Shown: in pieces, positions 541-61,950 of the stretch
Layout of the letters: each line of letters opens with the position of its first letter
Position numbering within the stretch: position 1 is the stretch's first letter
Assembly (NCBI GenBank): GCA_039908535.1
Contig: JAMOAW010000001.1
Location: forward strand, 50,259 to 114,258
Direction: 5' to 3'
Length of the DNA stretch: 64,000 nt
Source of the DNA: Magnetococcus sp. DMHC-6
Lineage (GTDB): Bacteria > Pseudomonadota > Magnetococcia > Magnetococcales > JADFZT01
The notes under the pieces: model-generated
Database searches by the model: none
Seen by the model: the letters and a program-made list of their open reading frames with translations, nothing else
What the model was told of the DNA's origin: nothing
Made by a program: the position numbers and the translations under genes

Positions 541-679
541 TTTTTAAAATCAAAACCCTGGGGGATGAATCCCCCAGACCCCCTCTTTTTTTTTAAAGAA
601 TTAAAAAAAAAGAGGGGGGGGGTATTGGAGGGCGGTTCTCCGCCCCCCAAGGTCTTGATTTTTTATTTTTCCGATACAT
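541..679 (-). repeat. Modular hairpin repeat (MITE/REP-like), lacks the GCCCGCAGGGC arm
   Basis: CCCTGGGGGATGAATCCCCCAG...GGGCGGTTCTCCGCCCCCCAAGGTCTTGATTTT..TCCGATACAT. Confidence 0.85.
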
Positions 680-947
680 GAAACACCTCTTTGACCAATT
701 TATCTATGGCTTGGCCTACCGCTTCTGGTATGGGTAACGGTTCTTCTGTTGCCAACATTTCAATCGCCTTTTTGACCGAATCCATGCCAAAAAGAGTGAT
801 TGAATCCCCTTTTCCCACGGACGAATCCTTTCCCGCACCGGGTGACATACCAATATTATTGGAATGTACCAAGCTATCATACCCAATCCATTGGGTCTGT
901 GCGTTACCGGACGTCCGAACGGGTTGATAAGCCGTTTGAATGCTCAT
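663..947 (-). CDS. Small hypothetical protein (94 aa)
   Basis: An internal ATG at 947 is preceded by AGGAGG at 6 nt spacing. I recognise no family. The stop codon lies inside the repeat element at 541-679. Confidence 0.45.
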   Translation of the reverse strand: MSIQTAYQPVRTSGNAQTQWIGYDSLVHSNNIGMSPGAGKDSSVGKGDSITLFGMDSVKKAIEMLATEEPLPIPEAVGQAIDKLVKEVFHVSEK

Positions 948-1200
948 GACAAGCCTCCTATCAACTTTTTTTTGTAATTCGACGATCCTTAAATGAATAG
1001 ATCGGCATCCTAGTACAAAAGCTTGAGAGAATTTTTCAGATCGGTATTTTTTTACGGAGTTCTCGTCCAAGCCATTAACAGAGCAAAAAAATCGGAAGTC
1101 ACCTCCAATGAATCTTTTTTTTCTTTACACAGGGATATCTTATAAACTAATATTGAAATCATAAAAACTACACAAAAAAAATACCTTAAAGGATAAATTT

Positions 1201-2385
1201 ATGCAAATTGAAGCTATTCGACTCAAAAATTTTAAATGTTTTAAAGAAATTGAAATTAAAAGCATACCACGTTTTTGCGTCCTAGTAGGGGCCAATGGTA
1301 CTGGAAAATCCACCCTATTTCATCTGTTCGGCTTCTTACGCGAAGCCTTTACCAGCAATATCCACATGGCTCTCATAAAAATGGGCGGGAGTCGAGGCTT
1401 CCATGAGGTACGCAGTCGAGGCGCGGATGGGGATATTGAAATCGAATTAAAATTTCGAACCAAGCCTACCGAACCTCTCGCCACCTATTTTCTATGCATT
1501 GGTGAAGAAAATGGTCATCCAATTGTCCGCCGTGAAATCTTAAAATATCGTCGTGGCAGCCATGGACAGCCGTGGCATTTTTTAGATTTTAAAAATGGCG
1601 TTGGAGAAGCTGTCACCAACGAGTTAGAAAATATCAAAGATGTCCAACATCTCCATCGCGAGGAACAAAAGCTTAAATCCTCAGACATTCTTGCCATTAA
1701 GGGACTCGCTCAATTTGAACGTTTTCCAGCCGTCATGGCCCTGGGAAACCTGATTGAAAACTGGCATATCTCCGATTTTCACATCAACCGCGCGCGCCCT
1801 GAGCAAGAAGCCGGTTACGCCGAACATCTCTCTTCAGAAGGGGAAAACCTCTCTCTGGTCATACAATTTCTGCATTCAAAACACCCAAAAATTTTTAAAA
1901 AAATCCTCGACAAACTGGCCGAACGGGTGCCAGGTATCCGCAAAGTAGAAGCCAAAACAACGGAAGAGGGCAGAATTTTGTTACGCTTTCAAGATGAGTC
2001 CTTCAAAGATCCCTTTTTAGCGCGCTATGTTTCCGATGGCACCATCAAAATGCTGGCCTATCTCACCCTGCTGTTTGATCCCTCGCCCCATTCGCTCCTA
2101 TGCGTTGAAGAGCCAGAAAATCAACTCTACCCGACTTTATTAGAGGAACTGGCCGAAGAGTTTCGTAATTACGCCGAAAAAGGAGGACAAGTGTTTGTCT
2201 CTACCCACTCGCCAGACTTTTTAAATGCGATGAAAATTGACGAGGTGTTCTGGTTGGTCAAAGAGCGTGGCTATACCCAAGTGCGCCGAGCTTCAGAGAA
2301 TGATCAATTGCAAGCCTATATGCAAGATGGGGATAAAATGGGCTATCTATGGAAACAAGATCTTTTCCCAGGGGCACAACCGTAA
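1201..2385 (+). CDS. ABC/SMC-like AAA ATPase (AAA_15/AAA_21 type)
   Basis: The N-terminus IRLKNFKCF is followed by Walker A GANGTGKST. Walker B/D-loop is LLCVEEPENQLYP and the H-loop is VFVSTHSP. Confidence 0.85.
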   Translation: MQIEAIRLKNFKCFKEIEIKSIPRFCVLVGANGTGKSTLFHLFGFLREAFTSNIHMALIKMGGSRGFHEVRSRGADGDIEIELKFRTKPTEPLATYFLCIGEENGHPIVRREILKYRRGSHGQPWHFLDFKNGVGEAVTNELENIKDVQHLHREEQKLKSSDILAIKGLAQFERFPAVMALGNLIENWHISDFHINRARPEQEAGYAEHLSSEGENLSLVIQFLHSKHPKIFKKILDKLAERVPGIRKVEAKTTEEGRILLRFQDESFKDPFLARYVSDGTIKMLAYLTLLFDPSPHSLLCVEEPENQLYPTLLEELAEEFRNYAEKGGQVFVSTHSPDFLNAMKIDEVFWLVKERGYTQVRRASENDQLQAYMQDGDKMGYLWKQDLFPGAQP

Positions 2386-2939
2386 TGGCTCAACTCGTTT
2401 TTTTACTTGAGGAACTCTCTGCCAAGGCCCTTCTGCAGGGGTTACTCCCACGGTTACTCCCGCAAGAAACTCAAGTACAATACATTGTTTTTGAAGGGAA
2501 ACATTATTTAGAAAAACAGTTACCGAAGAAACTTCATGGTTGGCAAAATCGAGAGAGTAAATTTATCGTCCTGAGGGACAAGGATGCTGCAGATTGCCGG
2601 ATGGTCAAAACCAGATTGCAAAAACTTTGTCAAAGGATACCAGCGGAAAAAATTCTAATACGGATTGCCTGCCGGGAGCTGGAATCCTGGTATTTAGGAG
2701 ATTTGACCGCTGTCGAATCCGCATTTAATGTCCGAGGAATCGCTAAACTCCAAAACAAAGAAAAATTTCATACCCCCGATCTTCTCAATTCTTTCGAAGA
2801 ATTAAAAAGCTTAGTTCCAAATTATCAAAAAATTTCTGGATCCCGTGCCATGGGTCAAGCGATGGATTTACAAAACAATTCGTCACAAAGCTATCAAGCG
2901 TTTATCAAAGGCATCCATAAATTAATAACCTCCATCTAA
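2385..2939 (+). CDS. DUF4276-like small protein with a TOPRIM-like E...DxD pattern (putative nuclease partner)
   Basis: TAATG overlap with the upstream ATPase. LVFLLEE (acidic residues after strand 1) and FIVLRDKDAAD (DxD) resemble the TOPRIM/OLD-type layout. The family assignment is from memory and not searched. Confidence 0.65.
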   Translation: MAQLVFLLEELSAKALLQGLLPRLLPQETQVQYIVFEGKHYLEKQLPKKLHGWQNRESKFIVLRDKDAADCRMVKTRLQKLCQRIPAEKILIRIACRELESWYLGDLTAVESAFNVRGIAKLQNKEKFHTPDLLNSFEELKSLVPNYQKISGSRAMGQAMDLQNNSSQSYQAFIKGIHKLITSI

Positions 2940-60643: not shown

Positions 60644-60645
60644 CG

Positions 60646-61776
60646 CTACTCCTCGTCATCCCAGTCCAAATCGTCATCCATATCCTCCTCAAAATCGTCG
60701 CTCTCTTTGACTTTGCCCGCTTTGGTGGGGGCGTCTGGGAGAGGGGCGATGGAATCGGCAACGGTTTGACGAATCTCACGCACCGCCTGCATCATGGCCA
60801 TGGTCAACTTGGGCAAACCAAATTTGGTCAAAGCCGAAATGGGATAAATGGCCTGCATATGAGCGGCTACAGTGGCAAAACGTTGTAAAAGAGGTTCCTT
60901 TTGCGCATCAGGCAAAAGTTCCCATTTGGTCAACACCAACCAACGGGGTTTGGCGGCCAAAAGAGAGGAATAGGCCGCGAGTTCTTGTTCGATCACTTGA
61001 AAATTGGTAACAGGATCGGATTCGTCAGGAGGCAAGACATCCACCAAATGGAGCAAAAGGGCACAGCGTTCCACATGTTTGAGAAAGGCATGTCCCAAAC
61101 CATGACCTTGGCTGGCCCCTTCAATCAGACCAGGAATATCGGCCACCACAAAGCTTTCCTCCTCTCCCACCCGCACCACGCCCAAATTGGGAACCAAAGT
61201 GGTAAAAGGATAATCGGCAATTTTAGGCCGGGCAGCGGAAAGAACAGAAATTAACGTCGATTTACCCGCGTTAGGCAATCCCGTCAAACCAACATCGGCG
61301 ATTAATTTTAATTCAAGACGTAACCACCGCTCTTCCCCTGGAGTACCAGGTTCAAATTGGCGTGGAGCTTGGTTGGTAGCACTCTTGAAATGGAGATTGC
61401 CCCGCCCACCAATCCCCCCCAGGGCCACCACGCAACGCGCCCCAGGAGCAGAAAGATCAGCCAACATGGTACCGCTCTCCTCGTCGCGAATCAAAGTGCC
61501 AACAGGCACACGAAATTCACAATCCAAGGCCGATTTGCCAGTACGCCCCCTACCCATACCATCCTGACCAGAACGAGCCTTTAAGTGGGGTTTGTATCGA
61601 TAGTCGATAAGGGTGTTGAGATGGGGATCGGCAATTAAAATGACATGACCGCCATTGCCACCATCGCCCCCATTCGGACCACCAAAGGGAATAAACTTTT
61701 CACGTCGAAAGGAGGCCACGCCGTCTCCGCCATCGCCAGAGCGAACATTGATTTTTACTTCGTCGATGAATTGCAT
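60646..61776 (-). CDS. obgE: GTPase Obg/CgtA
   Basis: [14 protein letters not shown] Obg fold; G1 GLPNAGKST; G3 DIPGLIEGA; an acidic C-terminal tail. Confidence 0.95.
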
Positions 61777-61803
61777 GGAGGGGTCCCAGAAGTAACAAAA
61801 AAA

Positions 61804-61950
61804 AACATGATGCCCTTCGGGCAAAAAATTAAAATCAAAGACAAAACCTTGGGGGATAAATCCCCCAAAGCCCCTCTTTTTTTTTAAGTATTAAAAGAAA
61901 AGAGGGGCTTTGGGGGGCGGTTCTCCGCCCCCCAAAGTCTCGATCTTTTT
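61804..61950 (-). repeat. Modular hairpin repeat, inverted, diverged
   Basis: AACATGATGCCCTTCGGGCAAAAAATTAAAATCAAAGAC...GGGGGGCGGTTCTCCGCCCCCCAAAGTCTCGATC. Confidence 0.85.

Follow-up and report, generated by a model that had tools for sequence, protein, structure and literature searches.

The repeats considered here lie in a 64,000-nt stretch of DNA from Magnetococcus sp. DMHC-6 (contig JAMOAW010000001.1, positions 50,259 to 114,258; hereafter the window), where they form a dense family of modular, hairpin-rich elements. We conclude that they are probably non-autonomous miniature derivatives of an IS91-family insertion sequence (IS), comparable to MITEs (transposable elements of miniature size with inverted repeats) but without terminal inverted repeats. 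The observations behind this assignment are termini shared with IS91-family elements, the lack of inverted termini and of target-site duplication, the enrichment of particular target tetranucleotides, head-to-tail junctions, the absence of the element at orthologous sites and a mosaic make-up. What is new is the occurrence of IS91-family mini-elements in high copy number, with both ends and hairpin cargo. No high-copy bacterial family of IS91-type miniatures was found in the literature searched; the full texts described as IS91-derived miniature elements solely the rare one-ended IS801 fragments of Pseudomonas syringae, and contained nothing on repeats or MITEs in Magnetococcus and no end motifs.

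A dense family of modular intergenic repeats

A profile hidden Markov model (HMM) built from 15 long copies (alignment A1) and run over both strands with a cut-off of E ≤ 0.01 delimited 28 non-overlapping segments, which sum to 3,162 nt, or 4.94% of the window. They are strictly intergenic and occupy 21 of the 54 intergenic gaps; three weaker fragments (42562-42587, 45176-45205 and 62716-62766) come in addition. An earlier inspection of the letters and open reading frames (ORFs), which we call the sequence-only reading, had described a dense family of portable, non-coding, modular repeats in both orientations, filling about 5% of the window. This description holds: shuffled sequence yields no segment at all. 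With up to three mismatches, hairpin 2 gave 27 strand matches at 17 window sites, hairpin 1 gave 13 matches and the last 22 nt of the element (the right-arm 22-mer) 18 copies, while 100 dinucleotide shuffles gave an expectation of 0.00 for each. A search of the whole window against Rfam at the gathering threshold returned no match to the repeat or to anything else, relaxed searches giving generic hairpin matches far below threshold.

A full copy consists of an ori-type end of about 20 nt, an interior of about 95 nt with two hairpin units and a ter-type end of about 45 nt. In the reference copy (47972-48129, plus strand), the ori-type end ATGTATCGGAAAAATAAAAATC (47972-47993), which corresponds to the IRR (inverted repeat, right) of the parent IS on the other strand, is followed by hairpin 1, TTGGGGGGCGG-AGAA-CCGCCCCCCAA (48000-48025). 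A C-rich/T-run linker (48026-48068) pairs with AAAAAAAAGAGGGGG into a central AT-rich hairpin and represents the junction of two inverted, related hairpin units. It leads to hairpin 2, CT(T/G)GGGGA-TTCA-TCCCCCAG (48069-48088), and to the ter-type end GGTTTTGATTTTGAC-TTTTTT-GCCCGCAGGGC-ACCATGTTC (48089-48129), which comprises a T-rich motif in subterminal position, a GC stem-loop and a tail of 9 nt that finishes with GTTC. The two hairpins and the linker constitute the cargo. Over the family, the 5' (ori-type) end reads ATGTATCGGAAAAA, written below as the left end ATGTATCGG..., and the 3' (ter-type) end GGTTTTGNTTTTGAC-TTTTTT-GCCCGMAGGGC-ATYATGTTC; in the window copies the right end is TTTTTT-GCCCGCAGGGC-ATCATGTTC, where 9 nt separate the small stem-loop from the terminus. 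The two termini are unlike and do not form terminal inverted repeats. Both outer arms distinguished by the sequence-only reading are present, but without symmetry: one is the ori end of an IS91-family IS and the other its dissimilar ter end.

The predicted folds contain the hairpins as they had been described, in the RNA of both strands and in DNA, and are more stable than those of shuffled sequences (z from -4.5 to -5.7; about -5 for RNA of either strand, -5.7 for single-stranded DNA). Halves, a mini-element, a tandem cluster and chimeras were all recovered, including a head-to-tail array at 30565-30898 and a cluster at 39214-39810. Module shuffling, also proposed earlier, was examined with a four-gamete check on two independent two-state characters, the top of hairpin 1 (CGG or CCC) and one pair of hairpin 2 (C-G or T-A). 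All four combinations occur, in the copies at 47972, 10340, 26445 and 53057; the copies are mosaics, with clear recombination between halves. The close resemblance of the reference copy to the one at 15467-15625 was confirmed, at 97.5% identity over 159 columns. Three copies at unlinked sites are 97.5-99.2% alike, which suggests a recent spread, and about 10 window copies retain both ends.

Ends shared with IS91-family elements and sites of insertion

A metagenome scan with the 22-nt right-arm motif identified at least 120 loci from many samples. In these loci the partner of the right end is ATGT(A/T)TCGGAAAAACAAA, which lies 80-280 nt upstream of it. The interior between the shared ends is wholly different among families, is always palindromic and comprises many cargo types of 80-280 bp, on host contigs of 29-55% GC. 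Conserved unlike ends around variable cargo suggest that the ends are what a transposase recognises. In two loci, L110 and L140, the right-arm motif and ATGT(A/T)TCGGAAAAA bound 1,593-bp elements with a single ORF on the opposite strand, of 427 aa in L110 and 430 aa in L140. This ORF matches the Pfam families Y2_Tnp (6.6e-35 and 3.3e-34, respectively) and Zn_Tnp_IS91 (5.5e-15 and 1.3e-15), and is therefore an IS91-family rolling-circle transposase. At six further loci the start of the same gene lies about 100 nt from the right-end motif, and the contig then stops. The full-length IS is thus about 1.6 kb long, and the transposase gene is its sole gene.

Searching by protein, a route independent of the DNA pattern, revealed homologues 63-65% identical annotated in metagenome-assembled genomes (MAGs) of Magnetococcales. 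In L202 the transposase gene has GAACATTGTGCCCCTTCGGGGCAAAAAG... before it and ...TTTATTGTTTTTCCGAAACAT after it, and in L203 the end reads ...TTTTTTTATTTTTCCGAAACGT. Alignment of the window copies with the IS showed about 20 nt in common at the gene-downstream (ori) end and about 45 nt, including the GGTTTTGNTTTTGAC motif, at the gene-upstream (ter) end; the interior has no similarity to the IS, and hairpin 1 is absent from its full-length copies. In the reference copy, the first 14-20 nt of the ori end match the gene-downstream end of L110, L140, L202 and L203, and about 45 nt of the ter end align with the gene-upstream end of L110, L140 and L202; L110 and L140 were found via the ter motif, so that their ter match holds by construction, but the ori match, and L202 and L203, are independent of that selection. 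Read in the IS orientation, with the transposase gene running from left to right, the bounding motifs are GAACATNATGCCC...GGGC and ...TTTTTCCGA(T/A)ACAT, the ter end is GAACATGATGCCCTGCGGGC, or in degenerate form GAACAT(G/A)ATGCCC(T/G)(T/C)(C/G)GGGCAAAAAA (18 window copies), and the ori end is ...TTTTTCCGATACAT-3'. The full-length IS of Magnetococcales have GC hairpins of their own at the hairpin-2 position, just inside the ter motif, and part of the cargo may for this reason descend from the IS itself.

Several observations on related elements were made on the way. One AT-rich metagenome (Ga0272440 and others, L083-L201; 29-39% GC) contains several unrelated mini families that have these IS91-type ends in common and measure about 107, 208 and 230-250 bp. 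The GCCTAAC...GTTAGGC palindrome of the 107-bp family mimics integron attC cores; an attC origin was considered and rejected, as the ends and not the cores are shared and these ends bound an IS91-type element. In L149 the ter end forms a 54-bp tandem array, and at L203:4245-4400, in a Magnetococcales MAG, an IS91-family ori end directly adjoins a tRNA-like gene, as judged by eye.

The flanks of 13 window and 77 metagenome copies contained no direct repeat that would represent a target-site duplication. Together with the gene scans, this comparison agrees with the earlier statement that the repeats carry no transposase and leave no duplication. Among 126 non-tandem flanks, GTTC adjoins the ori end in 12 (0.44 expected, 27-fold, p=4.5e-14) and is the most enriched tetranucleotide; CTTG does so in 6 (0.47 expected, 13-fold, p=9e-6), and both together account for 18 flanks where 0.9 were expected (p=3.6e-18). 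GTTC is the complement of GAAC. Since each element ends in GTTC, it offers a target to the next one, which matches the head-to-tail junctions GTTC/ATGTATCGG found at 30613/30614 in the window and in metagenome loci. The unlike ori and ter ends of IS91 type thus explain the lack of inverted termini, the lack of target duplication and the head-to-tail tandems. The size of 100-160 bp, the non-coding content, the intergenic position and the inner imperfect inverted repeat AAAAATCAAGACC / GGTTTTGATTTT would also suit a classical MITE derived from a cut-and-paste (DDE) IS. This origin is already contradicted, and we give it next to no weight: the true termini do not form an inverted repeat, the target site is not duplicated, and the termini match a Y2 element of the HUH class and not a DDE element.

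IS91 and IS801 have no proper inverted repeats, and their transposition starts at the essential right end (ori) and stops at the left end (ter) or at a ter-like sequence; the left end begins with GAAC and has a conserved GC-rich stem-loop, insertion takes place beside GAAC/CAAG-type tetranucleotides, and the transposase can act in trans (PMC3189936). The window elements share with IS91, IS801 and IS1294 unlike ends without inverted repeats, the lack of target duplication and a ter end formed by GAAC and a GC stem-loop. They also have in common with them a parent encoding a Y2_Tnp plus Zn_Tnp_IS91 transposase; GAAC/CAAG-type tetranucleotides adjoin the ori end in 18 of the 126 flanks. Miniature one-ended derivatives of IS801, a few hundred nt long, are known to move in Pseudomonas syringae (PMC3189936). 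These are rare, contiguous pieces of the IS with the right end only and present in few copies, whereas the window elements have both ends around foreign palindromic cargo, make up about 5% of the DNA in the window and belong to a set in which many cargo types share the ends, in hosts of 29-55% GC.

Proposed mobilisation, wider occurrence and competing explanations

By analogy with IS91 and IS801, we infer that the elements are mobilised in trans in DMHC-6. A Y2 HUH transposase supplied by a full-length copy would nick the ori end, rolling-circle replication would displace one strand up to the ter stem-loop, and the displaced strand would insert beside a GTTC- or CTTG-like tetranucleotide without duplicating the target. 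The GTTC terminus of the inserted element could then serve as a fresh target and give rise to head-to-tail arrays, and missed or premature termination, combined with recombination among the dense copies, would produce halves, minis and chimeras.

One-ended rolling-circle transposition by IS91 and ISCR elements is familiar above all as a means of moving resistance and virulence genes. Their eukaryotic counterparts, the Helitrons, are marked by an abundance of miniature derivatives that carry no genes; they rely on RepHel, integrate between an A and a T and have the ends 5'-TC and CTRR-3'. The window family resembles non-autonomous Helitrons in that it follows a rolling-circle HUH logic, has two different ends with a subterminal hairpin some 10 nt short of the 3' terminus and does not duplicate its target, as well as in the capture of foreign sequence and the very high copy number of gene-less derivatives. 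It differs from them in being a bacterial Y2 element with other ends, so that the likeness is one of mechanism, not of membership (on Helitrons, see PMC4778049). Tentatively, and with more doubt than confidence, one may go further and see here the first recognised high-copy "bacterial Helitron-like" miniatures, members of a cross-phylum superfamily derived from IS91 that would retain just the unlike ori and ter ends, acquire palindromic or terminator-like cargo and be able to make up about 5% of a genome, and whose hairpins in promoters and between operons would reshape transcription units in Magnetococcales.

If the IS91 derivation is true, MITE-like bursts are possible for rolling-circle elements in bacteria, and two short unlike ends provide a simple sequence rule for finding such elements in other genomes. 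Tools based on inverted repeats or target duplications miss them. The derivation would also account for the fragmentation of MAGs of freshwater magnetotactic cocci at these repeats. The elements are natural mini-substrates for the recognition of ori and ter by Y2 transposases, and a test case for the tolerance of hairpin-rich insertions in promoter regions and within operons.

Hairpin 2, the most widespread unit, is also found beyond its packaging between these ends. An exact-pattern scan for the hairpin-2 core, with one genome per species, identified at least 79 loci; among those listed, all are in seven Magnetococcales MAGs, many of them at contig ends. Its commonest form in these MAGs spans about 52 nt and reads AAAAAAAAGAGGGGGT-hairpin-GGGTTTTGA(C/T)TTT; at some loci the unit is found as inverted doublets (L042, L030, L010, L026, L051, L073, L074). 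Pairing in the stem amounts to 96.8% across 118 distinct copies, with C-G changed to U-A in 19 and G-C to A-U at two other pairs, counts that take one copy per locus selected by the search pattern and in which related copies are not independent events. The MAG YQC-5 has the same two-hairpin composite as DMHC-6, with 8 ori and 10 ter motifs in 292 kb, compared to 13 ori and 18 ter motifs in the 64 kb of DMHC-6. In DH2_bin6 (L007, L017, L018, L024, L031, L060, L079), another conserved motif, CGAGCATGAATATCCAATGATTG, stands before hairpin unit 2. The complementary strand of this motif is like a diverged ter end, with a T-run, a small CAAT-C-ATTG hairpin and ...CATGCTC; the DH2_bin6 form may represent a related lineage of such elements.

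High-copy extragenic palindromes combined into mosaics, the inverted doublets of hairpin unit 2 and its spread without IS91 ends, with a stem kept by compensatory changes, recall the repetitive extragenic palindromic (REP) sequences, the bacterial interspersed mosaic elements (BIMEs) and the REP doublets forming hairpins (REPINs), as do the HUH-type enzyme and possible effects on transcripts. The hairpin units might then have been spread by a REP-associated tyrosine transposase (RAYT; TnpA-REP, a Y1 HUH enzyme), the IS91-like ends being incidental. We consider this most improbable. No RAYT or IS200-IS605 gene was found in about 0.6 Mb by tblastn and phmmer (with an E. coli RAYT query checked against PDB 4ER8 and an unverified IS608 TnpA query), there is no GTAG-type 5' motif, and a RAYT leaves unexplained the conserved unlike ends that match an IS91-family element. 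The Correia elements (NEMIS) of Neisseria and the BOX and RUP elements of pneumococcus are likewise dense, modular and intergenic, 100-160 bp long, with possible side effects as promoters or terminators. The termini of Correia elements are inverted over 26 bp and flanked by a TA duplication, and no transposase is known for BOX elements; unlike the window elements, Correia and BOX elements lack IS91-type ends.

A number of findings weigh against derivation from an IS91-family IS. In five other MAGs the ori and ter motifs number 0-1 compared to 5-16 hairpins. Since the ends are nearly absent beside hairpin 2 there, hairpin unit 2 must be older or wider than its packaging between ori and ter, and the cargo has a history of its own, beyond what a model of IS91 miniatures explains. 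Several copies of the window are missing one end and would be immobile by the route proposed. At the ori side, 86% of the flanks have a tetranucleotide other than GTTC or CTTG, mostly a T-rich one (NTTN, T at -3 in 80%), so that the target rule appears looser than in IS91. The ter match of L110 and L140 carries the selection mentioned above. Finally, no full-length IS91-family copy or gene fragment was found in the window or in 0.5 Mb of hairpin-2-bearing Magnetococcales loci, and none could be assigned to DMHC-6.

Alternatively, the family might be a fossil, which descends from an IS91-type element but has no autonomous copy left in DMHC-6, homologous recombination, gene conversion and slippage alone keeping and reshuffling the pattern. 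The absence of a transposase gene from the window and the 79 related loci, the many truncated or one-ended copies and the traces of recombination between halves, tandem duplication and hexamer expansion would all suit such a state. We nevertheless judge it unlikely, because three unlinked copies are 97.5-99.2% identical, about 10 copies keep both ends and full-length relatives exist in other Magnetococcales MAGs; moreover, MAG assemblies usually lose multicopy IS, so that absence from contigs says little. A mobilising enzyme was also sought among recurrent neighbouring genes and this idea rejected: clustering of 1,632 ORFs from repeat-bearing loci gave only signalling, ABC and sigma-54 families and a few Rpn-like genes (PDDEXK_2 / Transposase_31), with no fixed spacing to the repeats.

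Gene context, the terminator question and individual copies

The placement of the copies relative to genes bears on whether they act as terminators. In the window, copies occupy 7 of 10 divergent, 4 of 11 convergent and 10 of 33 tandem gaps; in the other genomes the fractions are 12/51, 20/79 and 28/192. The claim of the sequence-only reading that the 3' ends of genes and the gaps between convergent genes hold most copies is therefore not borne out by the 21 occupied gaps of the window, and copies occupy any available intergenic space. They often lie just 4-70 nt from the next start codon and are found inside conserved gene strings, as between rpmA and obg or in the anmK-tyrS promoter region. 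Orthologous intergenic regions were compared, as suggested earlier: the tyrS-anmK gap, occupied here, has a conserved counterpart without any element both in the closest relative and in M. marinus MC-1, and the 9.2-kb syntenic loci of both contain no copy, the closest relative being one whose tyrosyl-tRNA synthetase is just 72% identical and not a close strain. The element is also absent from the YQC-5 gaps beside the trxB orthologue.

Of the earlier suggestion of a portable bidirectional intrinsic terminator, the sequence pattern is borne out but not the position. GC hairpins followed by T-runs are present, and terminator-like pattern hits are in excess (48 against 27.4 +/- 5.1 expected, and 42 against 25.2 +/- 4.9); the repeat hairpins with their T-rich tails make up most of this excess. 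One could go further and suppose that the copies are host-selected portable terminators or insulators, and that termination in both directions accounts for how many there are and where they lie. The top terminator-like hits are indeed hairpin 2 (plus strand) and hairpin 1 (minus strand), both with GGT(C/T)TTGATTTT behind them, a lone hairpin-1-like mini stands behind tyrS, and in tandem gaps copies tend to be co-oriented with transcription (14/19; not significant). This explanation is highly unlikely, as copies are at least as frequent in the divergent gaps of the window, where no gene has its 3' end, as in the convergent ones, copies stand close upstream of start codons and inside conserved strings, relatives do without the element at the same sites, and the conserved non-hairpin ends have no termination role. 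As the placement shows no preference for gene 3' ends, it argues that any terminator effect is incidental and does not determine where copies are located. The hairpins may nonetheless stop or pause transcription where a copy adjoins the 3' side of a gene. A sigma-54 or sigma-70 promoter in the right arm was discarded for want of a consistent match, and a G-quadruplex or a DNA-uptake sequence was dismissed from the sequence itself, the repeats being strictly intergenic and far longer than uptake signals.

Individual copies are given below with their strand, HMM range (positions run to 158) and nhmmer score. The copy at 15468-15625 (+, HMM 2-158, 177.4 bits) is full and 97.5% identical to the reference. 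Other full copies are located at 53058-53216 (+, 2-158, 168.8 bits) and 26445-26601 (-, 2-158, 159.6 bits), both in tandem gaps and the latter co-oriented with transcription, and at 40791-40939 (-, 2-157, 160.0 bits) in a divergent gap. The last has GTTC at its ori-side flank, as has the copy at 10341-10493 (+, 2-154, 153.1 bits), also in a divergent gap, whose ter end is degenerate. More diverged full copies lie between response-regulator and hybrid kinase genes (4667-4811, +, 2-158, 118.6 bits) and in a divergent gap (38049-38187, +, 3-158, 97.5 bits); the latter is old and 69% identical to the reference. A copy in a convergent gap (33693-33824, -, 3-158, 100.4 bits) overlaps both adjoining ORF ends, and the divergent tyrS-anmK promoter gap contains the copy 43867-44013 (+, 9-158, 140.7 bits).

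Incomplete copies are of several kinds. The ori end is replaced at 3015-3158 (+, 14-158, 141.0 bits; tandem gap). A 5'-truncated copy in a divergent gap (52201-52333, -, 26-158, 141.5 bits) is 99.2% identical to the reference over 119 nt, and the copy between rpmA and obg (61804-61951, -, 13-157, 141.9 bits) begins 3 nt past the rpmA stop codon. The ter end is lacking at 544-678 (-, 2-131, 136.8 bits; convergent gap) and at 41590-41701 (+, 2-136, 88.6 bits), which also has an internal deletion. Half copies made of hairpin 2 and the ter end are found at 35130-35224 (-, 69-158, 82.1 bits) and, between an Rpn-like gene and proA, at 57949-58041 (+, 67-158, 88.9 bits); one with a hairpin-2 variant is in a convergent gap (50104-50179, +, 83-153, 45.2 bits). 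In another half copy the ter end directly joins the hairpin-1 unit, without the hairpin-2 unit (39214-39291, -, 45.7 bits). A short element of about 101 bp (32397-32497, +, 23.5 and 21.7 bits) combines an ori end and a degenerate hairpin (2-59) with a ter end (109-158).

The head-to-tail array, on the plus strand, consists of a ter-end fragment (30565-30613, 112-158, 18.0 bits; junction GTTC/ATATATCG), a copy without ter end (30615-30748, 2-135, 138.6 bits) and a full copy (30750-30898, 2-158, 148.0 bits; divergent gap). Two 235-bp tandem units stand at 39339-39810 (+; Tandem Repeats Finder, period 235, 2.0 copies, 92% matches), with HMM hits at 39361-39416, 39508-39563, 39584-39639 and 39745-39810; in each unit a (TTTTGC/TTTTGA)n array accompanies two hairpin variants, one of them of hairpin 2. 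These hexamer arrays, of about 100 nt (39401-39505 and 39624-39740), prolong the T-rich motif after hairpin 2, and in metagenome minis and other genomes the hairpin likewise has arrays of TTTTGAC or GTTTTAAT behind it. The arrays may have arisen by slippage or else be subterminal repeats to which the transposase binds. Of the weaker fragments, the mini at 42562-42587 (+, E=0.011) is a lone hairpin-1-like stem-loop without IS ends between the convergent tauE and tyrS (42601-43833, -); a T-run follows it on the minus strand, and it is a terminator-like pattern hit. The fragment 45176-45205 (-, 78-107, E=0.011) lies where the ends of anmK and of a CI-like repressor gene overlap, and the third is at 62716-62766 (-, 19-71, E=0.027).

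Pfam and NCBIfam scans of nearly all long ORFs identified ordinary chromosomal genes, including the string rplU-rpmA-obg-proB-proA-nadD-rsfS-rlmH, tyrS, anmK, signalling proteins and glycosyltransferases. The tyrS product is 100% identical to the tyrosyl-tRNA synthetase recorded for the DMHC-6 MAG. The scans revealed no transposase gene in the window except one of Rpn type, and no tRNA or tmRNA gene was found in the window. The rpmA gene (L27; 61955-62207, -), which ends 3 nt before the repeat copy, was hidden in the ORF list by a longer spurious ORF (61891-62238). About 0.8 kb after a repeat copy (15626-16418) contain no ORF of at least 100 aa and no Rfam match. proB and proA are normally neighbours; here they are separated by a gene for an Rpn-family PD-(D/E)XK "recombination-promoting nuclease / putative transposase" (58230-59180, -). 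Related genes occur in other repeat-bearing loci (L043:2879-3832, L056:140-1147, L067:4835-5758), with no fixed spacing to the repeats. The window ORF 10562-11674 (+) is also Rpn-related, bears the associated DUF4351 domain and contains a 24-bp tandem repeat (11447-11493, 2 copies, 91% matches). Beside anmK lies a Mu-like trio (45198-47077) encoding a CI-type repressor with an S24 peptidase domain, Gam and Mor; the same trio is beside anmK in the closest relative (L080:763-2672), which suggests a conserved prophage remnant or a domesticated module.

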